Below, piece after piece: positions 6,686 through 48,984 of a stretch of 48,984 bases of DNA; position 1 is the first letter of the stretch, and each line of letters starts with the position of its first letter. The notes beneath the pieces are model-generated. The model was not told where the DNA came from and did not search any database. It was given only the letters and a program-made list of their open reading frames with translations. Position numbers and translations under genes: made by a program. This DNA comes from a virus: positions 1 through 48,984 of the IMG/VR virus record IMGVR_UViG_3300050015_000397; one strand, written 5' to 3'.

Positions 6686-6704
6686 ATAGTTATATTTCCT
6701 TTAT

Positions 6705-6835: not shown

Positions 6836-6838
6836 AAA

Positions 6839-8504: not shown

Positions 8505-8537
8505 ATACTCCTTTCTAATTTTACTATTATTACTAAT

Positions 8538-8567
8538 ATGGTAGCATAGTATTAAAAGATATGTCAA
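8538..8567 (-). promoter_or_regulatory. Candidate integrase promoter TTGACA-18-TACCAT
   Basis: Reverse complement of tgtcaa (8562-8567) and atggta (8538-8543). Confidence 0.45.
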
Positions 8568-8583
8568 CTGTGTATAACTTTGG

Positions 8584-8612
8584 TTGACTTTAGATATACC
8601 CTGCTATATAAT
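8584..8612 (+). promoter_or_regulatory. Near-consensus sigma70-type promoter TTGACT-17-TATAAT
   Basis: -35 at 8584-8589, -10 at 8607-8612. The ATG at 8622 is only 9 nt past the -10 box, so the mRNA would be leaderless. Confidence 0.7.
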
Positions 8613-8621
8613 TAAGTTACT

Positions 8622-9113: not shown

Positions 9114-9120
9114 TTACTTC

Positions 9121-9465
9121 ATGAAGAAGTCTCCCACTAACGAAACCACTAATGCCATACTCGATTTTTTGTTCCGGGCCAGAATTTTTTCCTTTAGGCA
9201 AAACATCTCTGGCATACCTGTTCCAGGAGGAGGGTTTCGTCCATCAGGAAAACGCGGACAACCAGACATCGTGGGAATACTGCCCCCTTCAGGGCGCTTT
9301 CTGGGCATTGAAGTTAAAACCGGCAAAGATCGACTTTCCCCAGAGCAAATTGGTTTTCACAAAAATTCCCGAGACGCCGGCGCTTTGATCCTCGTCGTCC
9401 ACGATTTTAATGACTTTTTAACCCAATGGAATAACATTTATGGCCTACCCGAAAAAACTGCCTGA
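9121..9465 (+). CDS. VRR-NUC / PD-(D/E)xK nuclease-like protein (114 aa)
   Basis: GQPDIVGIL ... FLGIEVKTGKDRLSPEQ..F (PD...ExK pattern). Confidence 0.7.
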   Translation: MKKSPTNETTNAILDFLFRARIFSFRQNISGIPVPGGGFRPSGKRGQPDIVGILPPSGRFLGIEVKTGKDRLSPEQIGFHKNSRDAGALILVVHDFNDFLTQWNNIYGLPEKTA

Positions 9466-9751
9466 CGACCCGATGTCCGCCGCTAAAAAGCTGGCGGATC
9501 GTTATCCTGACGGTTACTTCAACCGCTTCTCCGATAAGCCTTTCGACGAAGTAATCGCGGAACTTGCGAATGAAGAAAAGGGGTTGATTGCTACCGCGAT
9601 AATAAACTCGATAAAATTAACAGGCGACGCTTCGAGCTTTAAGATCCTACAGGCTTCACTTGAACGGCAGGGTTTTAGCACTGAGAAAGAATTACCAATA
9701 ACTGATGAGCGATATTTCGAAATTGTTAAAGTATTTGCCTCCAGAAACTGA
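9440..9751 (+). CDS. Hypothetical protein in the small-terminase position (103 aa)
   Basis: Position immediately upstream of and overlapping terL. Start uncertain; an alternative ATG is at 9473. Confidence 0.5.
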   Translation: MAYPKKLPDDPMSAAKKLADRYPDGYFNRFSDKPFDEVIAELANEEKGLIATAIINSIKLTGDASSFKILQASLERQGFSTEKELPITDERYFEIVKVFASRN

Positions 9752-16488: not shown

Positions 16489-17484
16489 ATGCCTCAGATG
16501 ATTAATAGGAGTAATTTCGCGGATTTTAACAACAATCTTACGATTGCTTGGACGAAATCTTACGCGGATTTTCCAAAGCGGGCGAGTGTCTTGTACAACA
16601 TGCAGTCAACCGAAGTTGATACAGGCGACATTTCCGGTTTGGATGGCTTTTCTGTAGCCAAGAGAAAGCGCGAAGGTGCTGATATGGCCTTTGGCAGCTT
16701 GACTCAAAATTACAGAAAAACATGGTCGACTTACGAAATTGCTTTGTCGACAAAGATTACTTGGAACATGCGCAAGTATGCCAAGTATGACCTCATCCAA
16801 AAAGCAATTAATAATCTTGCTCAAAGCGCGGCAAAACGCATGGAGTACGATTTGACCCACAGATTTACTTTTGCCAATAGCATTTCTTACACCTCACTTG
16901 AAGGTGAAACTGTAACCACGACCGTGGGAGACACGCTTGCTTTGTTAAGCGCTGTCCACACAATGCCCGGCACTTCCACCACTTTCCGAAACCGTGTTGC
17001 TAACAACCCGGTACTTTCTAAAGGTGGATTAGAAGCTGCTGAAACATTGTTTGCTACCCAGATGATTGATACTAACGGTGAGACGACCTTCCAGGATCCG
17101 ACTCACTTGGTTATTACCAATGATCCGAACACCAAAAATACTGCTATGCAGTATTTGAAGAGCTACGCTGACCCGACGGCCAGCCAAGCCGGTGTGATGA
17201 ATCCGTACGAAGGCAAATACGGTTTGATAATTTTGCCTTATCTGTCTACGACTGCTGCCGGTGTTTATGACAGCACCAAAGCGAAGATGTGGTTCTTGGT
17301 TAACATGAATCACAAAGACGCTTACTGCAAAGTCGGTCAAGATCCGATGTTTATTACCCCGTCCGATAACGGCGGTAAAGACATTTCTACTCTTGATTGG
17401 ACTTATGATACCTTGGCTTCTTATGCTTTAGAAATCGTAGACCCGAGATGGGTAGTGGGTAGCTTGGCGGATGCATCTGCTTGA
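16489..17484 (+). CDS. Major capsid protein (putative, 331 aa)
   Basis: Size, position after the scaffold gene, and a strong hairpin directly downstream. Confidence 0.7.
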   Translation: MPQMINRSNFADFNNNLTIAWTKSYADFPKRASVLYNMQSTEVDTGDISGLDGFSVAKRKREGADMAFGSLTQNYRKTWSTYEIALSTKITWNMRKYAKYDLIQKAINNLAQSAAKRMEYDLTHRFTFANSISYTSLEGETVTTTVGDTLALLSAVHTMPGTSTTFRNRVANNPVLSKGGLEAAETLFATQMIDTNGETTFQDPTHLVITNDPNTKNTAMQYLKSYADPTASQAGVMNPYEGKYGLIILPYLSTTAAGVYDSTKAKMWFLVNMNHKDAYCKVGQDPMFITPSDNGGKDISTLDWTYDTLASYALEIVDPRWVVGSLADASA

Positions 17485-26665: not shown

Positions 26666-29600
26666 ATGCCTATTGACTGGGGACAAGTATATAGCGGGAA
26701 AAGTTCGACTGCCGTAGCAACGCCTCCGGTTTCTTCATCGACTCCATCTCCGGTTAAGACTAGTGGCAATATTGATTGGGGAAGCGTGTATAAAATACCT
26801 ACTCCCAAAGTCAACGCTCTTCCTCCCAGCACTTCTCCGTTTAATCCGAATACTCCTAATAATCAGTTTGTGAATCCAAATACTCCAGCTCTGGGACCGG
26901 TTAAGAGCGTGGCACAACAGTTTTTACCTGCCTTAAAAGATACCATAGCCACTCCTACTCCCGGCTTTGGAGGTTACAACGCCCCTAAACCTGTGGACAT
27001 GGCCTTCCCAGTTGGCCCTTCCACTGCTGACATTGCTACAGCTAACCAAAAAGCCGATACTTTAAAAGCATCCGGCACATGGCTAGATACTAACAAGCCC
27101 GACCTAACTAATAAACAGCAGATTGATGCTTACAATGCCAAGGTTGCCGAGCATAACCAGACGTTAAAGGATTATCAGGCATTTTCCGGCACGTTAAATA
27201 AGCAGCAGGATGTTTTAAATACGCTTAATACCAAATCGGCTGCTTACAATGCCGGCAACGAGCAGGTAAGGGCTAACGTAACCGGGCAATCTCCTACTGC
27301 GAGGAAGTTTGACCAGACATTAGCTAATTCAGAAATACTCGGGCAGGTTTATAATTTGGTAAACAACAGCCCAGGCGAAGCGGAAAATAACAAAATGGCT
27401 GTGGCTGATTTTGCTGAAAAGCATCCGGGACTTTCTGCTGTGGCTGCTGGTTTGGGTATGCTTACAGATACCATTTTACTTTCCAATGTCGGAGCTGGAT
27501 TTGGCCTTGAAGCTAAGGTAGGATCTAAGGGCGGAACAGTATCAGAACTTTCTAAGTTTTTTTCTCCTACTAATAAGATTGCTCAAACCGCAACATCTAT
27601 TATTGCTAAAGGCACAGAGAATGCTTCCATCTTCGGCATCCAGTCTTTCCTGCACGAAGGTTTGTCCCAAGCCCAGAGTCAGAAATTTGAAGCTGGGAAA
27701 TTAGCTTCAGCCACAGGATCTGGCGCATTGTTTGGTTTTGCCACAGGTGGAGCTGGTGGATTCGTTTCCCGAACAGCGCGCGGTGCAGCCTCGGCCGCCG
27801 GAGTAGCAGCACTCACCACAGTTGAAAAACTCGTCTCTAATGGCAAATTAACCGCTAAGGATTTGACCGACATAGGCGTAAATGCCACTGTAGCCGGTAT
27901 TTTTAGTTTTACTACGGGTGGTAGCGCTAAGAGCGTGGAAGCTATTCGAGCTCGGGAAATAAATTTTGAAAGTCAAATAGCCACATATCGAAATGCCGAT
28001 CCTTCACTTACTTATGAACAAGGCAGGCAAGCGGCAGCATTGGACAATGCTTTAGTCTATTCACGAATTACAGGACAACCAATGTCTCCTGAATTAATGA
28101 AGCAGGCATTAAGTGGTCTGCTTGATGTTTCTGTTAAGCCTACTACTGAACTTAAACAGATTTTAAACGAAGTCCCCGAAAGCTTCAAATCTCTCCCGGC
28201 CGAAGAGCAGATAAAAATTCAGGAAAATGTCACCGAAAAAGTCCAGGCAGGGGAGCCGATTAAGCAGGCTATTAAAGAAGAGATGGTTGCGGCCGGCATG
28301 CCCGTTGGGTTTGTTCCTCCGACTCAAACTCCAGTTGATATGCTGACCCAGGGTAAGCCCGGCGTTACGATTGGTTTTAAAGCTCCCACCCAGACTCCGG
28401 TGGAGATGGCGCAGGGGGGGCAAACACACAGCAAAATGCAACCTGGTGATATTTTTGTATTCAGTCCTAAAACCGGACAGATACATAGTACAGTCGAAGG
28501 AATGAATGGAGACGAATCTACTAACATTGCTTTTAAAAGACAGATTTCAGGCGGTCATGAAGACATGTTACGGTCTTATAAAGACGCTCAAGGTCAATTG
28601 GGAAATTTTGATAGTCTTGTAAGAGGCAAAGTACTTAACGATGGAACAATTAATATTTATTTTGACGCGGATAAAAGCTTATCAATGACTAATGCCGATA
28701 GAATTGCTCAGCTCAGAAACGCTGCTAAAAGTTTGATTAGCCAAGGAACGAATCCTAACACTCCTGTGATAGTTGGTACTCAAGTAATGGGAAAAACTAT
28801 TGGCAACTTTATAAAACCTAATACTATTGGACAATTAGCTGGGGAGCCCCTCGGCTTCCAGCCCCCCATCGCTTCTCCGGTGGAGATGGTAACGCAGGCG
28901 GCACAGTTAAAGATGCAACCGACTAAAGCAGTCAAGCCTGAAGCCGTAGCTAAGGAAATGACTGGTCTTGGCATGGAGTCTTCTTTAAAAATAGGGAAAA
29001 ACGGTCCCGAGTATAAGCGCGCGCCTATCGGTAAGATTGAATTAAAAACTTTACTACAAAACAATGCAGAGTTTAAAGCTAATCCGGTATTGACGGTTAA
29101 TACCGCTGGTAACTTAGAGTTTAAAGGTAAAACTACCCAGTTTGAAATAAAGCCGGATGCAATGCAACTTCAGAAAGCTAATTTAAAGCCAGGTGATCAG
29201 ATAACTGTAGATAAAGCATCCCTCCAGGAAAAAGGCGCGCCGCAACAGATGCGTGTAATGAGAGATGGACAAGTCTTAGCCTCTAAAGCCGGTAAAGCCA
29301 TTGGAACATTTGAGAAAGCGCCACAAACTACGGAAGGGAAAACGTCTCTTAAACTATCCGACGAGGTTAAAACCTTTGTCCACAAGTACGCTGAACGAAT
29401 TGGAGAAGGATTCTTACCAAAAGGAACTAAAGGAGTATTTTATACGGATAGTAAAAATATCTTTACTTCCGGTATGACCAATGTCTCTACGGCTATTCAT
29501 GAAGTTACTCACTTTTTAGACCAGAAGTTTGGCATGGTTAAAAAGCTTAATAAAGTTGTGGGAGAGACCGAAAAAGGTAATCCTGTTTATGATAAGCAAA

Positions 29601-32515
29601 CTTATAAACTTAGGAAACAACTGACTGATATTTATGTAGCTTATTATCCCGGCGGAAGTAGGGATCATAAGTTAATTACCAGGCTTACTGAAGGTTATGC
29701 AACTTTACTTCAGAAGTATTCTGAGATGCCACAGACCATTACGGCAAATTATGAAAATCTGGTTAATACCTTTTTAAAGCCAGGCGGTATATTCTACGAA
29801 CCGGTTATTGGTGAGATGATCACTGACATTCGCAAACTGATAGACAACTACCAGGGTCTTTCATCGTTGGATAAAATCGGCAGCATGATTTCTACCGGGG
29901 ACAGCAAGGTTAATAAAAAGAGTTTCCTTAACTACTGGCAGATGCTTCGGACCGTAGAAGCTGATGATATTTATCCGTTTGAAGTGCTTGATACTCAGGC
30001 AGGAGTAGCCAATACTTCCAAAAGCGTTTCCCTTCAGATTCGCGGCTACAGGAATTATACATCTTCTGTATTCCAGAAAAACCTTTCTGGCAAAGGCGGC
30101 ATGTGGATTTTTAATGCCAAAGGCGAGATAGCTAAGGTGACTGAAAAGAATATCGGAAATTTAATCCAGGACTTAGCAAAGAAGAAAGTAATGGATGAGT
30201 TTGCTTTTTACTTGGTTGCCCGGGACGCGCATTTTGAATACCAGCGTCTGGATGAAATGAAAAAAGAACTGGACGCGGAAAAGGAAGCAATAGACGAGAT
30301 GAAGGCTGATGGAGAAGATTTAGTTGACGAAAAAGGCCATAGTTTAATGGATGCTTACCGGGAAATGAAAAAAGAATACGATACTATGGCTAAGGCTCTA
30401 GAGAATAATCCGTTTACTAGGGCGGAAGTTGATTCGGCATGGAGTCAAAATTCAGATAGATTTGTTCAGGAAGAAAAACTTTATGATGAGCTGACGGAAA
30501 AAGGACAGTTGGATATTCTTCATAATGCCCAACTTTTAAATAATGATAAGTACGAAGAGTTCAAAGGCAGGAAAGGTTATGCTTCCCGCAAGCGCGTATT
30601 TTATAATGAACTTCTAGGTGATGAGCTTAGTCACGGAGTTATTTCTGTCGGTGGATCCAGTATATCTTCCATGGTCCAGCGTAAAGGTTCGTTCCGCGAA
30701 ATCCAGAATCCTCTTTATTCTTTGGTTACTGATCATCATCAGATTATGACTAAAGCCGGTCGGCAGTTTATTTATAATCGGATGTTGAATATTGCTCCGC
30801 AGTTTCCTGATTTATTTCAAATACAAAAACTGGAAATGAAGGGTCCCGGCATCATGCCTCAAGTTACTGATCCGCATTATATTATTGCCCGGCAAAATTA
30901 CAAAGCCGTGCCGATTTTAGTTGATAATTTAGTTAGGCAGATACTGGATAATGTCCTATCGGTTCAGCACTTAAATAGTTTTGAACAGATTTTAAGGGAA
31001 GCTTCTCAAATTAAGGTTATTGGTACTACAGCTACTTACTATGCTTTTGGCGCGGTCAATGCTGTGCGCGATCAGATTACTGCTCCGATATTTTCCACAA
31101 ATAAATATATTCCGCTTTATACCGGTATGAAGGAACTGGTAAAAATATTTAACCCTACTAACCCGGAACATCAGTTTGCTAAAGAGTGGTTTACCTTAGG
31201 CGGCGACCGTTATACATTAGTGAGCTTTGAAAATCTTACTCCTGATGAAATTATGGCTAAGATTGCCAAAGAAACTACGGGACTTGAAACTGCTAAAAAA
31301 GTTTTAGAAACAGGTGGCGCTATTGTAGGCGCACCGGCAAAGTATTCTGAAATATTTACTCGTTTAACCGAGTATGTCCTTGCCCGGAAAAACGGTAAAG
31401 ACCAGTGGACAGCCATGGAAGACTCTCAGCGCGTCTCGGGGCCGTTCTCTCATATTGGCAAAGACCCTTCTACTGCTATTCGGCCATGGGCTTTGACTAA
31501 AAAAGCTTTGGCTAAATCTGTAGGTTCTCCACAGTCTTCAGGCGGACAGACTTTTATTCGCAGTATTCCATTTACTAATCCGGGACTTCAGATTATTGAC
31601 CAGGCATTAAGAACTTTGGAAACACCAAAAGGCCGCGCCAGATATTTATTTGTTGCCGCGGCGCTTACGGCTGTTTTAGTTGCGTCTACAATCTATACAA
31701 AAAACAAAGCTACCCCCGAGCAGATACAGGAACTGAAAGATATTGATCCGAATATGTTTACGCTTTATGTTTATATCCCTAAACCTTCCGGTAAAGGCTT
31801 TATTCGCATACCTATTCCACAAGAAGCTGGCGTAGTAGGGCAGATGATAAACATGGTAGTCAAAGATAAGATGATCGGCACTGATTACAGTAAAGGTGAA
31901 TATTTTGACGCGGGAACTGGCTTTTTACCAAACCTGATTAACCCACAGTCATTTATGGATAGTTCTAAAGCTATGACTGCGTTTATTCCTCAGTTGTTTA
32001 TGCCTATTATCCACGCGGCTACAGGCATGGCAACTTTCCCAACGACTCATCCGATTGAATCTGCTCGTATGAAAGCTCTCCCACCTGAATTTAGATATTC
32101 TGCCGGGACTGCTCCGGTTGCTAAATTTTTGGGTAAACAGTTTAATTTATCTCCAGCGATGATTGATTTTTTACTTACGGATACATTTGGTCGGGCCACA
32201 GGACTCCTTACCGGTAAAAAGGCGGCTTACAATCCATTATCCGGCTTTGACCAGAATTCCAACTGGGAATCAGGACGGACCATGAACAACTACTGGCAGT
32301 GGAGTAGTTATATTGCCCAAGAAACTACGGCCACTAAAAAAGGCTACCAACCGTACGATCCGGCGATAGCACAAAATAAAGGAACAGTAGCAACGATAGG
32401 CAAACTTATGACTGTTTATAGCGCAGCTTATACTCGTAATGATACAGAGTTGGCAACTACCCTTCAACAGACAATACAGCAATTAGCGTCTACTTTGCCT
32501 AAATTTGGTAAATAG
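26666..32515 (+). CDS. Giant virion protein with HExxH motif (1949 aa), possibly an internal core/ejection protein
   Basis: Uninterrupted 5.85-kb ORF. AIHEVTHFLD (zincin-like), IDWGxVY x2 at the N-terminus, F-PP-TPVeM-TQ x3, and a hydrophobic segment YLFVAAALTAVLVASTIY. Confidence 0.8.
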   Translation: MPIDWGQVYSGKSSTAVATPPVSSSTPSPVKTSGNIDWGSVYKIPTPKVNALPPSTSPFNPNTPNNQFVNPNTPALGPVKSVAQQFLPALKDTIATPTPGFGGYNAPKPVDMAFPVGPSTADIATANQKADTLKASGTWLDTNKPDLTNKQQIDAYNAKVAEHNQTLKDYQAFSGTLNKQQDVLNTLNTKSAAYNAGNEQVRANVTGQSPTARKFDQTLANSEILGQVYNLVNNSPGEAENNKMAVADFAEKHPGLSAVAAGLGMLTDTILLSNVGAGFGLEAKVGSKGGTVSELSKFFSPTNKIAQTATSIIAKGTENASIFGIQSFLHEGLSQAQSQKFEAGKLASATGSGALFGFATGGAGGFVSRTARGAASAAGVAALTTVEKLVSNGKLTAKDLTDIGVNATVAGIFSFTTGGSAKSVEAIRAREINFESQIATYRNADPSLTYEQGRQAAALDNALVYSRITGQPMSPELMKQALSGLLDVSVKPTTELKQILNEVPESFKSLPAEEQIKIQENVTEKVQAGEPIKQAIKEEMVAAGMPVGFVPPTQTPVDMLTQGKPGVTIGFKAPTQTPVEMAQGGQTHSKMQPGDIFVFSPKTGQIHSTVEGMNGDESTNIAFKRQISGGHEDMLRSYKDAQGQLGNFDSLVRGKVLNDGTINIYFDADKSLSMTNADRIAQLRNAAKSLISQGTNPNTPVIVGTQVMGKTIGNFIKPNTIGQLAGEPLGFQPPIASPVEMVTQAAQLKMQPTKAVKPEAVAKEMTGLGMESSLKIGKNGPEYKRAPIGKIELKTLLQNNAEFKANPVLTVNTAGNLEFKGKTTQFEIKPDAMQLQKANLKPGDQITVDKASLQEKGAPQQMRVMRDGQVLASKAGKAIGTFEKAPQTTEGKTSLKLSDEVKTFVHKYAERIGEGFLPKGTKGVFYTDSKNIFTSGMTNVSTAIHEVTHFLDQKFGMVKKLNKVVGETEKGNPVYDKQTYKLRKQLTDIYVAYYPGGSRDHKLITRLTEGYATLLQKYSEMPQTITANYENLVNTFLKPGGIFYEPVIGEMITDIRKLIDNYQGLSSLDKIGSMISTGDSKVNKKSFLNYWQMLRTVEADDIYPFEVLDTQAGVANTSKSVSLQIRGYRNYTSSVFQKNLSGKGGMWIFNAKGEIAKVTEKNIGNLIQDLAKKKVMDEFAFYLVARDAHFEYQRLDEMKKELDAEKEAIDEMKADGEDLVDEKGHSLMDAYREMKKEYDTMAKALENNPFTRAEVDSAWSQNSDRFVQEEKLYDELTEKGQLDILHNAQLLNNDKYEEFKGRKGYASRKRVFYNELLGDELSHGVISVGGSSISSMVQRKGSFREIQNPLYSLVTDHHQIMTKAGRQFIYNRMLNIAPQFPDLFQIQKLEMKGPGIMPQVTDPHYIIARQNYKAVPILVDNLVRQILDNVLSVQHLNSFEQILREASQIKVIGTTATYYAFGAVNAVRDQITAPIFSTNKYIPLYTGMKELVKIFNPTNPEHQFAKEWFTLGGDRYTLVSFENLTPDEIMAKIAKETTGLETAKKVLETGGAIVGAPAKYSEIFTRLTEYVLARKNGKDQWTAMEDSQRVSGPFSHIGKDPSTAIRPWALTKKALAKSVGSPQSSGGQTFIRSIPFTNPGLQIIDQALRTLETPKGRARYLFVAAALTAVLVASTIYTKNKATPEQIQELKDIDPNMFTLYVYIPKPSGKGFIRIPIPQEAGVVGQMINMVVKDKMIGTDYSKGEYFDAGTGFLPNLINPQSFMDSSKAMTAFIPQLFMPIIHAATGMATFPTTHPIESARMKALPPEFRYSAGTAPVAKFLGKQFNLSPAMIDFLLTDTFGRATGLLTGKKAAYNPLSGFDQNSNWESGRTMNNYWQWSSYIAQETTATKKGYQPYDPAIAQNKGTVATIGKLMTVYSAAYTRNDTELATTLQQTIQQLASTLPKFGK

Positions 32516-32662: not shown

Positions 32663-34843
32663 ATGCCATCAATTTTCAATTCAGATCAAGTAGCTCCTTC
32701 ACCAATTAATGGGAAGGTTTTAGGTACGGACGGAATTAAAAATCAGTGGGTAACAGGCGCTACTGGTTCCGGAGCCTGCGGTGTGTCTGGTGTTTCAGGG
32801 GTTTCTGGCGCGGCAGGCGCGGATGGAGCATGTGGTGTTTCTGGTGTCAGCGGTGTAAGTGGAACCGTTGGTTCTAACGGAGCATGTGGTGTATCAGGTG
32901 TCAGTGGTATCGCAGGAGACGGTGTATCTGGAGCCTGTGGAATTTCTGGAGTTAAAGGAGATACAGGTGCATGCGGAGTATCTGGAGTCAGTGGAGTCTC
33001 TGGTGTACCAGGTAATGATGGTGCCTGTGGAGCTAAAGGCGTAACGGGTGCTTGCGGAGTATCAGGTGTCTCTGGTGTTGCTTCTACAGTAGCAGGTCCC
33101 GCTGGAGCTTGTGGTGTAAGTGGAGTGTCAGGTGTGGCTTCTTCCGTTGCAGGACCAGCTGGTGCCTGTGGTGTCTCAGGAGTAAAAGGAGACACTGGAG
33201 CCTGTGGTATTTCTGGAGTGTCAGGTGTTTCAGGAACAGCAGGTACGAATGGGGCCTGTGGCGTAAGCGGAACAGCGGGTACTGCGGGGGCTTGCGGAGT
33301 ATCAGGAGTCTCAGGCGTTTCTGGCGTGGCCTCAACTGTCGCTGGAGCCACAGGAGCATGCGGGGTCTCAGGAGTTAGTGGTGTATCAGGAGTCAGTGGC
33401 GTATCGGGTGTTTCAGGCGTAGCATCTACAGTTTCGGGACCAGCAGGGGCTTGTGGGGTCTCAGGTATTTCCGGTGCATCTGGTCCTATTGGACAAGCCG
33501 GTGGATTTGCTATTGAGTGGACATACAATACTACGACAACTCCAACTCCTGCATCGGGTACTTTCAGAATGAACTCAGCTACTGCCAGTGCTGTAACCCA
33601 TTTATATGTTGCTATAGTAGACGCAAACTCTGTAGATGAAGATGCTATTTTGAATCAAATAAAATCAGGAGATGTAATTCAAGTTGAAGGACATTTAGTA
33701 CCTACTACATTTAATTTTTATAACGTTACAGCCAATACTCAACAAACAGGTTATCACGACTTTACAGTTGTTTGGCAGTCAGGTTCGGGGAATTTTACAA
33801 ATGGTGTTCTTCAAGATTTTCTATTCTCTTTAATAGGACCTGTTGGAGCATGTGGTGTCTCTGGTGTTTCTGGAGTTTCGGGTGTGTCTGGAACCACTGG
33901 GAGTGCTGGTGCATGTGGGGTTTCAGGTGTTAGTGGAATAAGTGGCGTAGCAGGAGCTGGGGGTGCATGCGGAATTTCAGGAGTCGCTGGAGCAGGTGGA
34001 GCCTGTGGGGTATCGGGTACCGCTGGAGCTGGAGGAGCCTGCGGTGTAAGCGGTGTCAGCGGAGTCACAGGTGTGGCGGGTGCTGCGGGGGCGTGTGGTG
34101 TCTCTGGTGTATCGGGGGTAACGGGAGTCAAAGGGGATACTGGTGCGTGCGGGGTAAGTGGCGTCTCAGGAGTAACTGGCGTAGCTGGTACCAATGGAGC
34201 CTGTGGTGTAAGTGGAACTGCGGGAACGAATGGGGCTTGTGGAGTTTCTGGAATATCAGGGGTATCAGGTACAACTGGTTCTGGTGCTTGTGGAGTTTCT
34301 GGTATTTCAGGGATTAGTGGCGTTTCAGGGGTATCTGGCGTAAGTGGAGTTCCTATAGCAAACCCGCTCGCCTCTTTAATCAATCTTGGAGAAGGTGCAG
34401 ACCCAGCAACAATTGGTTTAGCTGTTGATGAAAATCTGTCTGCCGATGAAAGATATTCTGGTATCGTTATTGCAGGAACTGCTGGAGCCACTATTGCTTT
34501 CGGAGATTTATGTTACTTGGATGTAACTGCGGCAGAGTGGGTTCTTGCAGATGCAGATGCAGTCGGTACTGCTGGACCTGTTTGTCTTGGAATATGCGTA
34601 GACGCTTCTACAAATGCAAATGCAACCGCGATGCTTCTAATGGGGACTGTTCGCTCTGCGGCATTTCCAGCTTCTATAGCTCTTGGTGCAGTTCTGTATG
34701 TAGGAGAAACTGCTGGAGACATCCAGGCAACTATACCAACTGGAGCTGATAATGTAATTCGGGTTGTTGGGTGGGCAATTACCGCTGAGCCAAATTCTAT
34801 CTATTTCAACCCAAGCCCCGAGTGGCAAATTACCGTTGCCTGA
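32663..34843 (+). CDS. Tail fibre with two Cys-punctuated Gly-X-Ser repeat blocks (726 aa)
   Basis: Single long ORF. Repeat blocks, a globular insert and a C-terminal globular domain. Located after the internal-protein genes, like T7 gp17. Confidence 0.8.
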   Translation: MPSIFNSDQVAPSPINGKVLGTDGIKNQWVTGATGSGACGVSGVSGVSGAAGADGACGVSGVSGVSGTVGSNGACGVSGVSGIAGDGVSGACGISGVKGDTGACGVSGVSGVSGVPGNDGACGAKGVTGACGVSGVSGVASTVAGPAGACGVSGVSGVASSVAGPAGACGVSGVKGDTGACGISGVSGVSGTAGTNGACGVSGTAGTAGACGVSGVSGVSGVASTVAGATGACGVSGVSGVSGVSGVSGVSGVASTVSGPAGACGVSGISGASGPIGQAGGFAIEWTYNTTTTPTPASGTFRMNSATASAVTHLYVAIVDANSVDEDAILNQIKSGDVIQVEGHLVPTTFNFYNVTANTQQTGYHDFTVVWQSGSGNFTNGVLQDFLFSLIGPVGACGVSGVSGVSGVSGTTGSAGACGVSGVSGISGVAGAGGACGISGVAGAGGACGVSGTAGAGGACGVSGVSGVTGVAGAAGACGVSGVSGVTGVKGDTGACGVSGVSGVTGVAGTNGACGVSGTAGTNGACGVSGISGVSGTTGSGACGVSGISGISGVSGVSGVSGVPIANPLASLINLGEGADPATIGLAVDENLSADERYSGIVIAGTAGATIAFGDLCYLDVTAAEWVLADADAVGTAGPVCLGICVDASTNANATAMLLMGTVRSAAFPASIALGAVLYVGETAGDIQATIPTGADNVIRVVGWAITAEPNSIYFNPSPEWQITVA
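32756..33505 (+). repeat. Repeat block 1: 14 G-A-C-G-[VIA]-[SK]-G units plus GVS/GTA triplets
   Basis: Read from the translation. Synonymous codons differ between copies. Confidence 0.9.
33836..34354 (+). repeat. Repeat block 2: 10 G-A-C-G-[VI]-S-G units plus GVS/GVA/GAG triplets
   Basis: Read from the translation. Confidence 0.9.
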
Positions 34844-34874: not shown

Positions 34875-35279
34875 ATGCCATTACCAAAAGACGAGACAAA
34901 GAGAAAAAAATATGTGGAAAATCTTAAAAATCAAGGTTTTCAAAAAGGACATACAGTTGGAAAAGGAGTAAAACATCCTTGGACAACAGAAAGAAACAAG
35001 ATAAATAATCCTGTAAAGAAAGGGAGTGAACATTATCTTTGGGTTGGTGGTGGACCTAAATATTGGGCTAAACAAACTAAAATTAGAGACGACAATACTT
35101 GTCAGATTTGTGGTTTAAAGGAACCAGACATTATGGTAGTTGACCACATAAAACCTAAATCAATTTTCCCTGAATTACAGTTTGAAATAAATAATTTAGT
35201 GACACTATGCCCAAATTGTCATGCAAGAAAAACGCAACGGGAAAGACGACAAAAATACGATAAACAATTCTATGCCTAA
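34875..35279 (+). CDS. HNH endonuclease (134 aa)
   Basis: CQICG...VDHIKP...NNLVTLCPNCHARK, plus an upstream EHYLWVGG motif. Confidence 0.85.
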   Translation: MPLPKDETKRKKYVENLKNQGFQKGHTVGKGVKHPWTTERNKINNPVKKGSEHYLWVGGGPKYWAKQTKIRDDNTCQICGLKEPDIMVVDHIKPKSIFPELQFEINNLVTLCPNCHARKTQRERRQKYDKQFYA

Positions 35280-35937
35280 AATAATCAACAATCTAAATCC
35301 TAAATATACCCTTGACGAAACTAAGCAGTTTTTTGCTTTAACAGCAAAAGACAATCCGAAAGACCTTGTAGAAATTGAGTTGGGAGACAGTAAGGATTCT
35401 TCAAAGTTTTTTCCACAACAGAAAATATCTCGTTGGAACAATGAAGTAAACTGTTCAATTAGGTTGAAAGACTTTGATGGGTTTAGTGTTGAAACTGAAA
35501 CGGACAAAATAAAACTCATCACATCAGAAAAGGAAGTTCATTTATATCAAGTAGAAGATGGGGAGGGGGCTAGTGAATTTGAAATCATTTTGAACAAGAA
35601 GCCTAAAAGTAATGTAATGGAATTTTCCATTCAGGACAAGGGAGTTTCTTATTTCTTTCAACCTCCTTTAACAGAACAAGAAAAAGCAGATGGAGCTTCT
35701 CGTCCGATAAATGTGGAGGGGAGTTATGCAGTATACGCTTCAGATAATAAGACTAATTACACTGGGGGGAAGGAGTATAAGTGCGGTAAGTTGGGGCATA
35801 TATATCGCCCCTTGATAAAAGATAATTTAGGCACAGAAGTCTGGGGAGATTTACATATTGAAAACGGAATACTCTCGGTAACTATTCCTCAAGACTTTTT
35901 AGACAAATGTTCTTACCCTTGTTCAATGAAGACATAA
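35272..35937 (+). CDS. Hypothetical protein (221 aa) between the two HNH genes
   Basis: Start taken at ATG 35272 (ATGCCTAA overlap with the HNH stop); the track start is 35221. Confidence 0.65.
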   Translation: MPKIINNLNPKYTLDETKQFFALTAKDNPKDLVEIELGDSKDSSKFFPQQKISRWNNEVNCSIRLKDFDGFSVETETDKIKLITSEKEVHLYQVEDGEGASEFEIILNKKPKSNVMEFSIQDKGVSYFFQPPLTEQEKADGASRPINVEGSYAVYASDNKTNYTGGKEYKCGKLGHIYRPLIKDNLGTEVWGDLHIENGILSVTIPQDFLDKCSYPCSMKT

Positions 35938-35941
35938 TTAT

Positions 35942-36496
35942 ATGTTTAAGAAACCACACACAAAAGAAACGAAAGTAAAAATAGGTCTTGGAAACACCAA
36001 GGTTAAAATTACCATAATCTGTAAACAATGCGGGAAGTCTTTTGAAGTAGTGCCGTCTTGGGCGATTAAAGTATTTTGTTCAAGGGTTTGTTTTGGAAAA
36101 TATAATAAAGGAAAACCCACTTGGAATACTGGTAAAAAAGGTGTTCAGGTCGCTTGGAATAAAGATAAAAAGTTTTTACAAATAAGTGGGGCAAATCATT
36201 ATAATTGGAAAGGTGGGATAGCAACCACAAATGATAAATTGAGGCATAGTTTTGAGGCAAATCTTTGGAAGAAGGCGTGTCTGGAACGAGATAACCACAC
36301 TTGCCAGAAATATGGAACTACAACAAATTTAGTGGTTCACCACATAAATAATTTCTCTGATTTTTCCGAATTAAGAACAAGCATTGAAAATGGTATTACT
36401 CTCTCAAAGAAAGCCCACGAAGAATTTCATAAAAAATATGGAAAGAAAAACAACACATTAGCACAGATAAAAGAATTTCTTTATGAAAATAAATAA
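35942..36496 (+). CDS. HNH endonuclease with N-terminal zinc ribbon (184 aa)
   Basis: CKQCG..CSRVC, NHYNWKGG, CQKYG..VVHHIN...NGITLSKKAHEEFH. Confidence 0.85.
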   Translation: MFKKPHTKETKVKIGLGNTKVKITIICKQCGKSFEVVPSWAIKVFCSRVCFGKYNKGKPTWNTGKKGVQVAWNKDKKFLQISGANHYNWKGGIATTNDKLRHSFEANLWKKACLERDNHTCQKYGTTTNLVVHHINNFSDFSELRTSIENGITLSKKAHEEFHKKYGKKNNTLAQIKEFLYENK

Positions 36497-37187
36497 GAAA
36501 AAATTCATAATAGATTTACTCTTACTTGTAGGAGTTATTGTTGTTGCAAAACTAACGGGGCATACAGAAGGACTTTCTATAATGGGAATGCCTTTAGTGA
36601 CCGCAGCAGGGTTGACGTTTGGGCATGCTGGAACTGGTGGAACTGCTTCATCTCAAGCGGTTAGTTCCATATCTCAAGCACACACAGGAGCAACTGAATT
36701 ATATACCGCATCTGCTGGTGAAACTATTGTTAGTTTTTCTGTGTATGGAAAAGTAACCACAACTCCAAATGGTTCAACTGGTATGTCGGCATATACAGTA
36801 TCGGGAGGTAAACCGAACACTAGATTAGCGGCAGGTACAACGATTACAATGAACTCTACCACTACTCAATGGTGGACTAGTGGTGCTGTAAGTCAAGCAA
36901 TGAGTGGTGGAGTGACATATACAGTAGCCCATGGCGGAGTTGCTGGACACGATTTAACATTTTATTATGATGCAGCAACGGGTCGTTCATACGATACAAA
37001 TGATTTAGCTGCAACGTGGACGGATGTTGTATCTTCAAATTTTAGATGGCACATGTACGCCACCTATACAGCAGCAGCCTCTGGTCCAGCCAACCTAAAA
37101 TCACGTAGTGGTAATTTAAAAGCAAATATAAAATCGCTTTCTGGAAATTTGATAGCTAATTGCAAGTCTTTAAGTGGGAACAGTTAA
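36483..37187 (+). CDS. N-terminally membrane-anchored T/S/G/A-rich protein with C-terminal 11-residue repeats (234 aa)
   Basis: TM helix FIIDLLLLVGVIVVA. C-terminus is KSRSGNLKANI-KSLSGNLIANC-KSLSGNS. Confidence 0.7.
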   Translation: MKINKKKFIIDLLLLVGVIVVAKLTGHTEGLSIMGMPLVTAAGLTFGHAGTGGTASSQAVSSISQAHTGATELYTASAGETIVSFSVYGKVTTTPNGSTGMSAYTVSGGKPNTRLAAGTTITMNSTTTQWWTSGAVSQAMSGGVTYTVAHGGVAGHDLTFYYDAATGRSYDTNDLAATWTDVVSSNFRWHMYATYTAAASGPANLKSRSGNLKANIKSLSGNLIANCKSLSGNS

Positions 37188-37203
37188 GTGGTATAATAAA
37201 TTC

Positions 37204-38871
37204 ATGAAAACCAACAAATATACAATAGAATTTCCTGAGCAGTTTGACTTCGTTAAAGAGGAATTTGAAAAGTCCGGCGTTTGGGAACCCAAGACTACTG
37301 AGTATGTTAAAACTCACCTCAAAGCAGGTCAGACTTTTGTAGATGTCGGAGCTAATGTTGGTTACTATTCTATTCTTGCTTCTAAACTCGGAGCAAAGGT
37401 TTTAGCTTTTGAACCTTCTTTAAATAACCGCACACTCTTAGAAAAGAACATCAAGGATAACGATTGTGATGTTCAAGTTTACAGTCAAGCACTCTCTGAC
37501 AAGACTGAAAGTGGCTTTTTATACACCGACACAACTCCAGGGCAGTATAGCCTTATAGGTAAAGGTAACGGTGAAAAAGTTGATTGCGTCCGATTTGATG
37601 ATTTGAATTTACCAGTTCCAGACTTTCTGAAAATTGATGCCGAAGGTGCGGAACGCCAAGTCTTAGAGGGTATGCAAAGCGTTCTCACTACCGACAAGCC
37701 TGTAACAATTTTAATCGAGGACTGGAAAAATGATTTGACCGAGTGGCTTGTAAGGACTCACGGATTTAACTTGGTAGAGACCGAACGCAAATATGGAAAT
37801 AAGATTTTAACCAAGAACCAACCTTTTGAATACAAACCCGAACCTTATACAATTCATCTTTTAAGTCTACCACACACTGAAACAACTAAAGATTATAGTT
37901 GGTGTGCTTTCACTTCTCTTGTAATCAATATGGCGACAATGATGACACAACAAGGACATAAGGTTATTTTATATGCTGGAGAAAACAACGAAGCCGAATG
38001 TTTTGAACACGTCAATTGTTCAGGAAAACCAAAGAGTTCAGACTTCTTTGTACCGCCTTGGACTTATGAATACTTTGCTCCAATGAATAATAAGATTATT
38101 GAGGAAATGAAAAAGCGGATTCAGATTGGGGATATAATATTAGAATCAACTTCTTTACAGAGTGTAGTAGCTGATGCATTCCCTAGAAATATCTCAATGG
38201 AATATGCCATCGGATATGGTGGTTGTAAATCCCGTTGCAGGGTGTTCCCGGCTGAAGCGTGGAGGCACGAAATTTACGGCAGAGATGCCGCCGCAAGAGG
38301 AGAGGATATACACACGGTTATGGGATACAGTTCAGACTGCGTAATCCCTCATATGTTAAACGTTGACCAATTTCCAGAAGGTAAAGGAGATGGTAACTAC
38401 CTATTGTTTGTAGGAAGACTAGGCGGAATGAAAGGCGAACAAGTTGCCGTTGAGACTTCTAAGCGAACAGGCATACCTTTAAAACTGGCTGGTCCAGGAA
38501 CTCCACCGAATTACGGAGAATATCTGGGAGTCCTAAAGCCCGAAGAACGGGCAAAAGTAATGGGTGGTGCAATAGCAGTTATAGCTCCTTCAATGTTTCC
38601 AGAACCATTTTGTTTAGTAGTAACGGAAGCTCAGATGTGCGGCACACCTACGATAACTACCCCGTGGGGAGCTTTTACCGAGACAAATGAAGATGGTTTG
38701 ACTGGGTATCGTTGCCATACATTAGGCGAGTTTGAACAGGCAGTTTATGATTGCAAAAAACTTGATAGAAAAAAGATAAGAGAAAGAGCCATTAAGAAGT
38801 ATTCAATGGAAGCAGTTGGTCCACAATATACGAAATATTTTCACCGTATGGAAGAAATTTTACCTAAATAA
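37204..38871 (+). CDS. FkbM-family methyltransferase fused to a GT-B (GT1/GT4-like) glycosyltransferase
   Basis: N-terminal half: FVDVGANVGYYS..AFEP..FLKIDAEGAERQVLEGM. C-terminal half: EPFCLVVTEAQMCGTPTITTPWGAFTETNEDGLTGY. ATG 37204; the track GTG start is 37174. Confidence 0.8.
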   Translation: MKTNKYTIEFPEQFDFVKEEFEKSGVWEPKTTEYVKTHLKAGQTFVDVGANVGYYSILASKLGAKVLAFEPSLNNRTLLEKNIKDNDCDVQVYSQALSDKTESGFLYTDTTPGQYSLIGKGNGEKVDCVRFDDLNLPVPDFLKIDAEGAERQVLEGMQSVLTTDKPVTILIEDWKNDLTEWLVRTHGFNLVETERKYGNKILTKNQPFEYKPEPYTIHLLSLPHTETTKDYSWCAFTSLVINMATMMTQQGHKVILYAGENNEAECFEHVNCSGKPKSSDFFVPPWTYEYFAPMNNKIIEEMKKRIQIGDIILESTSLQSVVADAFPRNISMEYAIGYGGCKSRCRVFPAEAWRHEIYGRDAAARGEDIHTVMGYSSDCVIPHMLNVDQFPEGKGDGNYLLFVGRLGGMKGEQVAVETSKRTGIPLKLAGPGTPPNYGEYLGVLKPEERAKVMGGAIAVIAPSMFPEPFCLVVTEAQMCGTPTITTPWGAFTETNEDGLTGYRCHTLGEFEQAVYDCKKLDRKKIRERAIKKYSMEAVGPQYTKYFHRMEEILPK

Positions 38872-39264: not shown

Positions 39265-40218
39265 ATGAATTTACAATCTATTCTAAAAACTAAATACCCC
39301 CAAGGTTCACACGGAGGAGAGTGTGCCTCTTGGTGTGAACAGATATTTAGTTTCGGCCCCGTGGGAGATACCTTAGCTTCCAAGACTAAATTTGTAAAGT
39401 CAAACGGAGACTGTTATTTAGCCGGGAGTATATCCGAACTTGCTAAAGGGTTTAGAATAGGAGATGTGGTTTTTACTTCCGAAAGTCCTGTTCACGGGCA
39501 CGTTGCTATAATTACGGGCTTTGACAAAGATTCTCTAATTTTAGCCGAGAGTAACTTTAGCCTTGATAAAAAAGTAAATTACGGGCGCAGACTACCAATG
39601 CTTTCTTCAAAAATCATCGGGATAGGAAGATTTCCATTTAAAATAGATTTAGGATTTTTAACCATACCTTTTTCTTATGATGTATTTTTAAACAATCAGG
39701 ACTGGAGTTTAAAAGTTCTGGAGTCGGTTAAAAGTTTAATAAGCCAGTATACTAAACTGGACGTAACCTTTTTTGCCGCGAAGACTACTTTCCAAAATTG
39801 GTGGTATGAAGATTTTCCTTTTAACGGCTCAATTTATCGGGTGATAGCTAAAAGTTTCTTGGTTAATAACGTAGTCCCTTATAGTTTTACAAATTACAAT
39901 GCAGCTTCTGATTTAATAGCTTTTATTGTTTCCCCGGCGCAGTGGCAGGGTACGGTTTACGGGAACCAGCAAGGAGCTGAAATAGCATGGACAAGCAACG
40001 ACATAAAGGTCGTACAAGGAAGTTGCGGAGAAATGAGTAAATCCCCGTGGTATGACATGCCTCTTATAACCCATATTTTAATCCACGAACTTTCCCATTA
40101 TCTGCACTACCTTGCAGGTTCAAAATCTGACCAAACAGATATAATTGATAATCAAAAAAAGGACTTAAAAGGTATCTTTAAAGATTTAGATTGGAACAGA
40201 ATAGCCGTAAATTTATGA
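39265..40218 (+). CDS. Endolysin candidate: N-terminal CHAP/NlpC-like cysteine peptidase plus C-terminal HExxH domain (317 aa)
   Basis: GECASWCEQ (Cys), HGHVAIITG (His), LAESNF; C-terminal HILIHELSHYLHY. Confidence 0.65.
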   Translation: MNLQSILKTKYPQGSHGGECASWCEQIFSFGPVGDTLASKTKFVKSNGDCYLAGSISELAKGFRIGDVVFTSESPVHGHVAIITGFDKDSLILAESNFSLDKKVNYGRRLPMLSSKIIGIGRFPFKIDLGFLTIPFSYDVFLNNQDWSLKVLESVKSLISQYTKLDVTFFAAKTTFQNWWYEDFPFNGSIYRVIAKSFLVNNVVPYSFTNYNAASDLIAFIVSPAQWQGTVYGNQQGAEIAWTSNDIKVVQGSCGEMSKSPWYDMPLITHILIHELSHYLHYLAGSKSDQTDIIDNQKKDLKGIFKDLDWNRIAVNL

Positions 40219-45485: not shown

Positions 45486-46241
45486 ATGAAATATCCTGAC
45501 GACTACATAAACAAAATAATCTGCGGTGATTGTTTAGAGGTGATGAAGCAAATTCCCGATAAAAGCATAGATTTGGTAATAACTAGTCCACCTTATAATT
45601 TTAATTTAAGATTACACGGTGAAGAATATGGACAACGGTGCGAGCCTAAAAAAAATAAATATAATTGGACAGATGATTGTTTGCCAATGGACGAATACTT
45701 TGAATGGCAAAAAGATTGTTTAAAAGAAATGTTAAGAGTTTGTAATCGTGAAATATTTTATAATATTCAAGTTATAACAGGAAATAAATTGGCGGTCTGG
45801 AAAATCATAGGTCATTTTGCTGAATATATAAAAGAACTAATAATTTGGGATAAGATAAACGCAGAACCAGCAATAATGACAGGAGTAATGAATAGTAATT
45901 TTGAGTTGATAATAGTTTTATCCAATAGTAAACCTCGTCAGCGAATGTTTGAAGTTGCTAATTGGGAACGTGGAACTTTTAGCAATATAGTTAAGTTAAA
46001 TAAACAAAACCGCAACGACTCGTCTGATTACCACAAAGCAACCTTTCCAAAAGAGCTTGCTAATTTATTACTTATAAAATTTAGCAATCAGAACGATGTT
46101 GTGCTTGACCCTTTTATGGGAAGCGGAACTACTGCTAGAGCCGCACAAGACTTAAACCGCCGTTTTATCGGCATAGAAATAAGCTCTGACTATGCTCGTA
46201 TAGCTGAAGACCGTTTAAAGCAAGGTGTCCTTAATTTTTAA
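45486..46241 (+). CDS. N4-cytosine/N6-adenine DNA methyltransferase (beta class)
   Basis: ITSPPYNF (motif IV) lies N-terminal to DPFMGSGTTARAA (motif I). Confidence 0.85.
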   Translation: MKYPDDYINKIICGDCLEVMKQIPDKSIDLVITSPPYNFNLRLHGEEYGQRCEPKKNKYNWTDDCLPMDEYFEWQKDCLKEMLRVCNREIFYNIQVITGNKLAVWKIIGHFAEYIKELIIWDKINAEPAIMTGVMNSNFELIIVLSNSKPRQRMFEVANWERGTFSNIVKLNKQNRNDSSDYHKATFPKELANLLLIKFSNQNDVVLDPFMGSGTTARAAQDLNRRFIGIEISSDYARIAEDRLKQGVLNF

Positions 46242-48526: not shown

Positions 48527-48984
48527 ATGAAACACCTAGATTTATTTTCCGGTATAGGAGGATTCGCTTACGCTCTTGATTCCGTATACCCGAACGTTGA
48601 ACACGTCTTTTGCGATAACGACCCGTTCTGTCAGCAAGTATTAAAAAAACATTGGCCTAATTCAAAAATATATGGAGACATTAGACAGCTTAATTCCGAC
48701 ACCTACGGCAACGGACTACAAGAGCAGGGGACCGAACAGCAAACAAGTGGGGATAGACAACTTCCTGAAATTACATTCCTCACCGGAGGATTCCCTTGCC
48801 AGCCTTTCTCCCAAGTTGGGAAAAGAGGAGGCACGGAAGATAACCGTTACCTCTGGCCTGAAATGCTTAGAGTTATACAAACTTTCAAACCGACATACAT
48901 CATTGCTGAAAACGTGCGTGGACTCCTTACTATCAACAACGGACTGGTATTCGAACAAGTCTGCCTTGACCTGGAAGCCAGTGG
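48527..48984 (+). CDS. DNA (cytosine-5)-methyltransferase, 5' part; continues across the circular junction at base 128
   Basis: ATG 48527. MKHLDLFSGIGGF (motif I), GGFPCQPFS (motif IV), IIAENV (ENV motif). Joined gene is 939 nt, 312 aa. Confidence 0.9.
   Translation, partial: MKHLDLFSGIGGFAYALDSVYPNVEHVFCDNDPFCQQVLKKHWPNSKIYGDIRQLNSDTYGNGLQEQGTEQQTSGDRQLPEITFLTGGFPCQPFSQVGKRGGTEDNRYLWPEMLRVIQTFKPTYIIAENVRGLLTINNGLVFEQVCLDLEAS
48858..48984. repeat. Terminal overlap, partner of 1-127
   Basis: 127/127 identity with the window start. Confidence 0.95.

Follow-up and report, generated by a model that had tools for sequence, protein, structure and literature searches.

A cysteine-bearing heptad in collagen-like phage fibres is linked to one glycosyltransferase clade and may serve as its acceptor

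Why should a phage fibre repeat a single cysteine, in an almost invariant setting, along a collagen-like stalk with almost no proline? The question is raised by the viral record IMGVR_UViG_3300050015_000397 of IMG/VR, all 48,984 nucleotides of which were analysed here (the window), and by one gene in it, the plus-strand open reading frame (ORF) at 32663-34843 (ATG start, 726 residues, stop codon included in the coordinates). An earlier description of the same stretch, referred to below as the original prediction, had recognised in this ORF a fibre built on the heptad G-A-C-G-V-S-G, and had suggested that its cysteines could form inter-chain disulfides, bind metal or carry other modifications. 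The heptad was found to co-occur with one clade of glycosyltransferases at every informative locus, evidence that favours the last of these suggestions, and we consider it probable, judging from conservation and gene linkage, that G-A-C-G-[VI]-S-G is the acceptor sequon of the co-encoded enzyme. Because an invariant short peptide always travels with one enzyme clade, an enzyme with its sequon would be the simplest reading.

Both the ORF list and Pfam agreed with the description of the gene as a collagen-like fibre gene. Pfam Collagen (PF01391) matched the protein at E = 3.6e-45, with 152 bits against a gathering threshold of 27.2, and PHROG tail-fibre families matched it through the Gly-X-Y repeats only. 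A short N-terminal segment, presumed to be the attachment end (residues 1-36, 32663-32770), is followed on the plus strand by collagen block 1 (residues 37-282, 32771-33508, with 14 heptads and five register breaks), a globular all-beta node (residues 283-391, 33509-33835), collagen block 2 (residues 392-564, 33836-34354, with ten heptads and one register break) and an all-beta globular head at the C-terminus (residues 565-726, 34355-34840). The two blocks and the limits of the second are those originally given, whereas the first had been placed at 32756-33505. Four of the breaks are the inserts of the form V-A-S-[TS]-V-[AS]-G-[PA]-[AT] seen previously, namely V-A-S-T-V-A-G-P-A (residues 139-147, 33077-33103, +), V-A-S-S-V-A-G-P-A (158-166, 33134-33160, +), V-A-S-T-V-A-G-A-T (222-230, 33326-33352, +) and V-A-S-T-V-S-G-P-A (253-261, 33419-33445, +); two further one-residue breaks, GDG at residues 87-90 and GSG at residues 541-544, had not been mentioned. 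A kink like the first, xS[TS]V[AS]GPAGACG, also occurs in P0001, L011 and L017 (P and L numbers are our handles for proteins and loci). The blocks hold 133 Gly-X-Y triplets in eight runs, the longest of 50 triplets, with X and Y residues that are mostly Val, Ala, Ser, Cys and Thr; the 133 Y residues include 58 Ser, 23 Cys and ten Thr. Proline accounts for seven of the 399 repeat residues, the number that had been estimated, and the repeat has neither stabilising proline or hydroxyproline nor many charge pairs of the Scl2 type. The gene product is taken to be a phage fibre of collagen-like, homotrimeric build, most likely serving as tail or side fibre, whose blocks, if triple-helical, would be about 70 nm (block 1) and 50 nm (block 2) long.

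The pattern GACG[VIA][SK]G is matched 24 times in the fibre, by 23 exact copies of GACG[VI]SG and one GACGAKG (residue 120), in agreement with the 24 or so copies first counted. Twenty-four cysteines lie in the repeat blocks, all of them at the Y position of Gly-X-Y, and three more in the C-terminal domain. Inside the blocks the distance from Cys to Cys is 9-31 residues, so that the interval of 9-25 residues proposed earlier held at its lower bound but not at its upper. All 23 Y-position cysteines of the triplet runs stand in the context A-C-G-[VI]-S, against 1.4 expected from composition (binomial p = 6e-29), and when the X and Y residues were shuffled 2000 times the heptad arose 1.35 times on average and at most 6 times. 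Third codon positions within the heptads of the window fibre are free, with four codons used for Gly, four for Ala, two for Cys and four for Val, and with both TCN and AGY used for Ser. The GC content at third positions of the heptad is 0.24 in the window and 0.52 in a phage of 65% GC content, and genomes of 39-46% GC share an identical heptad peptide with the 65% GC phage, whose codon preferences differ. Since codons vary freely in the window and in the 65% GC phage alike, selection acts on the heptad peptide, which upholds the view that the periodicity is selected at the protein level. A DNA-level repeat or recombination motif was ruled out, synonymous sites being scrambled while the same peptide occurs in genomes of 39% and 65% GC. 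Two antisense ORFs at 32743-33528 (-) and 33811-34491 (-), with translations of the type TPETPDTPQAP, were rejected as by-products of the Gly-X-Y coding strand, because they end at domain borders and the plus frame spans domains with homologues and confident folds. An identical 726-residue protein is present on an independent Logan assembly (SRR35915826), which argues against the gross repeat collapse about which the original prediction had been concerned, though the reads may be related.

The regular array of cysteines, termed the ladder here, was examined in a sample of 19 proteins with 300 cysteines in Gly-X-Y runs, in which database homologues were pooled with ladder ORFs from fetched loci. 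The ladder is present in ten of the best 120 database matches to the fibre. Every one of the 300 cysteines occupies the Y position, with Ala at -1 in 298, Val or Ile at +2 in 298 and Ser at +3 in 293 of them, and wherever GA?G[VI]SG occurs in the ladder proteins the variable residue is Cys (294/294), flanked by triplets that vary. Successive units are spaced by 9, 12, 15 or 18 residues and almost never by fewer than nine. The ladder is as unusual and regular as it had been said to be, and its cysteines, whose conservation in homologues had been singled out as decisive, are invariant across the sample. Some heptads keep the Cys without the Ser (GACGVAG, GACGAKG and GACGVGG), also at L026/27. 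Ladder proteins stem from unrelated phage backbones of 39-65% GC, and their heads differ, being of tail collar, C1q, Gly-rich or DUF2190-like type. A protein search with an artificial heptad-only query, which returned 17 short proteins, was useless as a census and added nine ladder examples. We found no mention of "GACGVSG" in the searchable library of papers, and looking there for phage glycosyltransferases combined with collagen-like proteins, or for S-glycosylation combined with glycosyltransferase family 4 (GT4), brought up no account of a fibre with such a heptad and an enzyme of its own.

Proline-rich PVTPQA linkers (L104, L105, L107-L109 and L111), which read GACGVTG in antisense, were false positives of the DNA-pattern scans of IMG/VR and were discarded. 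As a separate observation, Gly-rich proteins or domains of the GGxGG type, ending in a short hydrophobic beta motif, adjoin or are fused to ladder and other collagen-like fibre genes; instances are L017 (4275-5270), L008 (5797-6441), the C-terminus of the ladder protein of L093, and L091 (127-7968).

The enzyme in question, which the original prediction had overlooked, is encoded at 37174-38871 (+), 2.3 kb downstream of the fibre gene and on the same strand, and is a fusion of an FkbM methyltransferase (approximately residues 23-221) to a GT4-type glycosyltransferase (residues 226-565), as assigned by Pfam; the JGI gene call begins at the ATG at 37204 and gives 555 residues. Methyltransf_21 matched at 57.8 bits, above its cut-off, and Glycos_transf_1 (PF00534) at 44.6 bits against a gathering threshold of 26.4, with a further match to Glyco_trans_1_4 and a sub-threshold one to RfbT. 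No match to glycosyltransferase family 2 (GT2), the family of SunS and ThuS, was found in it by Pfam. Its EX7E motif reads EPFCLVVTE, and both glutamates (E251 and E259) are kept in 116 of 116 aligned homologues. A profile search of PDB structures gave the GT4 glucosylsucrose synthase 7fg9/8x3q at E = 4e-25, pterin glucosyltransferases (5zer, E = 2e-11) and, more weakly, BshA, MshA and PimA. Glucosylsucrose synthase 7fg9 and the pterin glucosyltransferases use UDP-glucose (PMC9909042), and the partner enzyme is presumably a retaining, GT4-like enzyme of GT-B fold that uses a nucleoside diphosphate hexose.

Downstream of a ladder gene, and on its strand, this enzyme is encoded in the window and at L002, L003, L004/5, L006, L007, L093/94 and L103. 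At L002, L003 and L004/5 a Glycos_transf_1 gene comes directly after the fibre gene, and at L006 and L007 a methyltransferase-glycosyltransferase fusion lies downstream of the ladder gene. The L002-L007 enzymes are 74-85% identical to one another and to the window partner, which is 74-89% identical to the enzymes lying directly after ladder fibres elsewhere, and in many cases the ladder gene adjoins the enzyme gene or its stop codon overlaps the start codon of the latter. In the 65% GC phage (L093) a 61%-identical enzyme comes directly after an 860-residue protein with 25 GACGVSG units. These loci are mostly short metagenomic contigs, and related cassettes among them are not fully independent observations. 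The ladder loci without the enzyme (L008-10, L099, L102 and L110) all break off within 1.7 kb after the ladder gene. Likewise, six ladder contigs were recovered by unbiased DNA-pattern scans of IMG/VR for two heptads, and all three that are informative carry the enzyme, the other three ending less than 1.7 kb downstream.

The link was equally apparent from the side of the enzyme. A reverse search with an enzyme profile against IMG/VR and metagenomes returned two IMG/VR and 16 metagenome loci, and wherever a locus extends 1.5 kb or more upstream of the enzyme, a ladder ORF lies there on the same strand (L011/14, L012, L017, L019, L020, L022, L026, L027 and L028), the others ending too early. 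The association holds down to 49% enzyme identity, at L026/27, where the partner protein has a short run of four to five heptads within an otherwise non-collagen protein. Among the loci examined, no ladder locus with enough downstream DNA was found to be without the enzyme clade; no relatives of the partner enzyme were found among 185,579 reference genomes. The ladder clade (at least 49% identity) comprises about 75 of the 116 full-length homologues that were aligned, out of 189 found, and its glycosyltransferase is often fused to the methyltransferase, as in the window. The linked enzymes are 49-89% identical despite differing fibre heads and differing backbones. Among the latter are L003, a siphovirus that has TMP and Dit, two podoviruses resembling SU10 (L006 and L007), the window phage with its LPD38 polyvalent protein, and the 65% GC phage (L093). 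By these comparisons the fibre-enzyme cassette moves between phage backbones.

More distant relatives of the enzyme keep the association with collagen-like genes but not with cysteine. Homologues at 29-46% identity adjoin Cys-free collagen-like genes in which Y is mostly Thr. One control is P0002, which is orthologous to the window fibre and has its node and head, but in which GAT, GTT and GVT triplets occur and Cys does not; its neighbouring enzyme is 37-41% identical to the partner. The enzyme next to P0015, a protein with GDT/GSQ repeats, is 28-31% identical. Of the loci fetched with the P0002 and P0015 enzymes (L032-L090), most with enough upstream DNA carry a same-strand collagen-like ORF, with Thr predominant at Y and never Cys; GAT makes up 23% of triplets in one Thr clade and GDT 31% in the other. 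A 46%-identical enzyme adjoins a GPS/GPT/GAT collagen gene. In a cultured cyanomyovirus, Synechococcus phage ACG-2014f (L098, NC_026927), the cluster at 5172-10660, just after the baseplate hub, runs from the collagen repeat protein gp015 through a small protein, the methyltransferase-like gp017, the glycosyltransferase gp018 (35% identical) and the 2OG-Fe(II) oxygenase gp019, a possible prolyl or lysyl hydroxylase, to a tail fibre; from its gene content gp015-gp019 looks like a collagen-modification cluster beside baseplate and tail-fibre genes. Outside phages, a metagenome-assembled genome (MAG) of Nanopelagicales (L095-L097) has a 43%-identical glycosyltransferase 2 kb from a 749-residue GPT/GAT collagen-like gene, in a cellular context of dual-specificity phosphatase, GT2 and nucleotidyltransferase genes, and this likely host lineage may make glycosylated collagen-like surface proteins of its own.

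The clade of the enzyme covaries with the type of repeat. The Thr-rich phage genes (L029-L090 and ACG-2014f gp015-gp019) have in common with the ladder type the enzyme family, the order collagen, methyltransferase, glycosyltransferase and often, as in P0002, the node and head; they differ in that their repeats lack Cys and are dominated by GAT or GDT, and in that the methyltransferase, which recurs as a fused FkbM domain in the ladder clade, is a separate gene of Methyltransf_11 type. A broad enzyme family is thus tied to collagen-like genes and one distinct, tight clade of it specifically to the Cys heptad. Five positions of the glycosyltransferase domain (37852-38868 in the window) are fixed in the ladder-linked clade and fixed differently in the Thr-linked relatives, namely 75 (F in the ladder clade, W in the relatives), 78 (M, F), 97 (L, C), 133 (P, E) and 247 (S, T), and these are candidate acceptor-specificity residues.

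If the heptad is the sequon of the partner enzyme, a sugar would be loaded on each heptad in the infected cell, the acceptor being either the thiol of the Y-position Cys (an S-glycoside, which is slightly favoured) or the Y-position Ser three residues further on, and the FkbM domain would O-methylate the sugar transferred; it is the recurrence of a methyltransferase that suggests a methylated sugar. Rings of three (or six) glycans would then encircle the trimer at intervals of 9-18 residues (2.6-5 nm), 24 of them on the window fibre. Such a coat would lend stability and solubility to a triple helix nearly devoid of proline and poor in charge pairs, cap thiols prone to oxidation outside the cell and shield the stalk from proteases. 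A Y-position glycan that stabilised a proline-poor helix would tie together the two oddities of this fibre, its low proline content and its ladder of cysteines. That the Cys itself is S-glycosylated by a GT4-like enzyme, to give 72 thio-linked and often methylated sugars per trimer, is a proposal we make tentatively. It is hinted at by the heptads mentioned above that have lost Ser and retained Cys, by the fact that GAC takes the place of the GAT or GDT of the other clades, and by position 133, where the Glu conserved in Thr-type enzymes is Pro in the ladder clade; a further hint is that three exposed thiols per ring cannot all pair.

Several points weigh against the heptad as a sequon. Glycosylation of the fibre is deduced from gene linkage, and the linkage of heptad and enzyme among related mobile modules may be due in part to common ancestry and not to function. 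The enzyme gene of the window, furthermore, is separated from the fibre gene by two HNH genes and two further ORFs. The KGDT motif of one Thr clade might be explained by helix-stabilising K-D pairs, and the heptad might by analogy be purely structural. As to the atom modified, Ser at +3 is conserved at 97.7%, almost as strictly as Cys, so that O-glycosylation of the Ser, with Cys as a recognition element, would be equally simple. The known bacterial S-glycosyltransferases belong to GT2, and we know of no GT4 or GT-B enzyme that makes protein S-glycosides. Moreover, enzymes of GT4-like fold are known that put sugars on DNA and on small molecules (PMC13326640).

Phage fibres of collagen-like type, collagen-like proteins that bear glycans and self-glycosylation by phages are each known singly; a Cys-bearing fixed heptad with a glycosyltransferase clade of its own is not known to us. 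One close parallel is BclA of the Bacillus exosporium, a trimeric protein with a collagen-like stalk, a C1q-like head, Thr as acceptor in GPT repeats and methylated glycans. The window fibre likewise has a collagen-like stalk with a C-terminal head (C1q-like in BclA and in the ladder protein P0076), many repeats with a Y residue as the known or presumed acceptor, a linked glycosyltransferase gene and, where BclA has methylated glycans, a methyltransferase partner. Thr is not its repeated Y residue, however (10/133), the fixed heptad having Cys and Ser instead of the Thr of GPT; a virus fibre also differs from a spore nap, the enzymes belong to another clade, and glycosylation of the fibre is itself putative. 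The functional logic proposed here is that of the cuticle collagen of Riftia, in which galactosyl-threonine at Y positions stabilises a triple helix poor in proline and hydroxyproline, though this is an animal collagen with O-linked Thr and no fixed heptad. For a sugar on the thiol itself, ThuS provides a precedent, modifying both Ser and Cys, which would fit a heptad containing both. S-glycosylation is established in glycocins, through sublancin with its enzyme SunS, glycocin F, thurandacin with ThuS, and pallidocin (PMC6405829, PMC12457901). If Cys is the acceptor, the two systems would have in common a ribosomally made product whose Cys thiol receives a sugar from a dedicated enzyme encoded alongside it; the glycocin enzymes, by contrast, are inverting GT2 enzymes of GT-A fold acting on one or two sites of small bacteriocins, whereas here a GT4-like enzyme would face 24 sites per chain, with a putative S-linkage. 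As for phages that glycosylate themselves, Freeman et al. reportedly described virion glycosylation in mycobacteriophages in 2023. In the work as it is cited in PMC11256854 and PMC12363180, phage-encoded glycosyltransferases decorate the phages' own structural proteins. In those phages the sugars are carried by capsid and tail-tube subunits, on extensions of their C-termini, with no collagen-like fibre and no Cys motif.

A different use of the cysteines would be as staples, their oxidation after lysis joining the three chains or neighbouring fibres and making up for the low proline content, while the glycosyltransferase modified Ser, Thr or something else. Extracellular structural proteins usually hold Cys as disulfides and animal collagens use Cys knots, and a strictly conserved Cys in a stalk with only 7/399 Pro would suit such a role. 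Yet one Cys per chain at each level makes a ring of three thiols, an odd number that leaves at least one unpaired, and the rings are at least nine residues (about 26 Å) apart; by the geometry of the triple helix the Y side chains would face away from its axis, and those of adjacent chains could reach one another for a disulfide only if the helix were distorted. The cystine knots of animal collagens, such as GPCCG of type III and the FACIT junctions, resemble the ladder in having Cys within or next to Gly-X-Y repeats, but they consist of two Cys per chain at the end of a helix, whereas in the window fibre single cysteines at least nine residues apart run along both blocks. The stalk, moreover, needs no staples, because a Cys-free orthologue with the same node and head exists (P0002). 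Disulfides have no need of the invariant Ala, Val or Ile and Ser of the heptad and leave these, and the exclusive link to one enzyme clade, unexplained; the inter-chain disulfides of the original prediction therefore seem unlikely to us. Lanthionine or thioester-type cross-links were also considered and rejected, as no matching enzyme is conserved nearby and the heptad offers no Gln or Lys partner.

Alternatively, fibre and enzyme might stand in no enzyme-substrate relation, the glycosyltransferase being directed at phage DNA or at the host envelope (for superinfection exclusion or receptor masking) and the heptad being a structural or partner-binding motif in the manner of the GFOGER-type recognition sites of animal collagen. 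A role in DNA protection or cell-wall modification has been proposed for glycosyltransferases of freshwater actinophages (PMC10202952), enzymes of similar GT-B fold add sugars to DNA (PMC13326640), and the 43%-identical homologue of the Nanopelagicales MAG sits in a cellular glycan cluster. Even that homologue, however, lies 2 kb from the 749-residue collagen-like gene, enzyme genes are often translationally coupled to the fibre gene, and the link tracks the repeat motif and not the backbone or the receptor-binding head. The window phage carries two DNA methyltransferases, C5 (6-608) and N6/N4 (45486-46241), and a scan of 50 window ORFs against Pfam or PHROGs, beside which small unannotated ORFs remain, showed no thymidylate-synthase-like enzyme that would make hydroxymethyl- or hydroxy-pyrimidines. 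We regard it as quite improbable that the fibre is not the substrate of the enzyme and the two are linked for another reason.

That the repeat adopts some other Gly-rich architecture, such as a polyglycine-II bundle or a beta-solenoid with the cysteines packed inside or paired, is very improbable. The very low proline content and the six register breaks would be compatible with it, and polyglycine-II sandwiches are found in phage adhesins and in the snow-flea antifreeze protein. Nevertheless, the Gly-X-Y register is strict over the long runs described above and the Pfam Collagen match is strong, and relatives in which the stalk ends in a C1q or tail-collar head have the architecture of trimeric collagen-like proteins. 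In an AlphaFold2 (AF2) monomer model neither block forms secondary structure or a compact alternative fold (predicted local distance difference test, pLDDT, about 30), as is expected because the chain must trimerise. Metal binding by thiol rings, or covalent attachment of the phage to surfaces or host thiols, scarcely merits credence, as only the regular spacing of 72 thiols per trimer speaks for it, whereas the heptad offers no His, Asp or Glu ligands, the Y-position thiols would face outward from the helix and the enzyme link would go unexplained.

With these results an odd repeat becomes a defined and testable two-gene module of a seven-residue unit and the enzyme clade that accompanies it. 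Should the heptad be the substrate of its enzyme, phages of abundant freshwater bacteria would build sugar-coated collagen fibres, which would explain a triple helix with almost no proline, and the many "orphan" glycosyltransferases in phages of aquatic habitats, commonly explained by protection of DNA or changes to the host wall, would have a structural protein as substrate. If the linkage is to sulphur, a protein would be S-glycosylated by a GT-B enzyme, in a virus and on a collagen-type helix, each for the first time, extending a small repertoire to a new enzyme fold and to viruses; with Cys as acceptor, G-A-C-G-[VI]-S-G would furthermore be a short portable sequon for engineering and for hydrolysis-resistant glycoconjugates. 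The link between the enzyme family and collagen-like genes, seen also in the Thr type, in cultured cyanophages and in a host MAG, deserves to be tested as a general rule for annotation.

The remaining domains of the fibre were compared with known sequences and folds. The N-terminal segment has no Pfam family match, no BLASTP similarity among the 120 retrieved homologues, and an AF2 pLDDT below 40. The node, of eight strands, was modelled with a pLDDT of 87-98 and the head with about 70-85 (mean 71), in keeping with the globular insert of roughly 110 residues and the globular C-terminus foreseen in the original prediction. Of the profile searches proposed there, that of the repeat yielded Pfam Collagen, while the node had no Pfam match and, in a PDB sequence search, one chance-level match; Foldseek of the full-length model against the PDB gave only insignificant small-barrel matches, for the node. 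Relatives of the node at 25-35% identity recur in many phage proteins as inserts between collagen blocks, whether or not the repeats contain Cys. The head has a DUF2190 or capsid-cement-like fold and is 70-75% identical to the C-termini of collagen-free fibre proteins (P0008, P0010, P0016 and others), which suggests that the domain is exchanged among phage fibre proteins. In BFVD it was matched by Foldseek (E = 1e-8 to 1e-3) to the C-termini of "tail fiber-like", Mtd_N and collagen-repeat proteins from uncultured phages and cyanophages, and to a DUF2190 protein. Against PDB structures it gave weak matches to capsid cement proteins and to phi29 gp8.5, the head-fibre base; a PDB sequence search with the head found nothing, and tblastn found a Flavobacterium phage "tail fiber protein" at 35% identity.

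The genes between fibre and partner enzyme run in the order HNH endonuclease (34875-35279), ORF without annotation (35221-35937), HNH endonuclease (35942-36496) and ORF without annotation (36483-37187), in a place where most relatives have fibre and enzyme adjacent. L028 has a similar insertion, in which homologues of both unannotated ORFs are fused in one 446-residue protein, and it looks as if homing endonucleases had invaded the cassette. The gene immediately before that of the fibre (26666-32515) encodes a 1949-residue protein with an LPD38 domain near its C-terminus (residues 1703-1847) and no PHROG match, possibly a multi-domain protein that is injected and whose gene closes the structural module.

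As regards the genome as a whole, its first and last 127 nucleotides (1-127 and 48858-48984) are identical, and because of this terminal repeat it is taken to be a complete, circularly assembled genome of about 48.86 kb, in which the C5 DNA methylase ORF at 6-608 is probably split by the arbitrary point of linearisation. A tyrosine integrase (7743-8567, -) indicates a temperate phage. The large terminase is encoded at 9705-11270 and a capsid-like protein at 16489-17484; the phage also carries a helicase and a primase besides its DNA methylases, and no tRNA genes were found in the window. Beyond the partner enzyme, a 317-residue protein (39265-40218) with a weak CHAP-domain match is probably the endolysin, and at L003, too, a CHAP protein lies downstream of the cassette.

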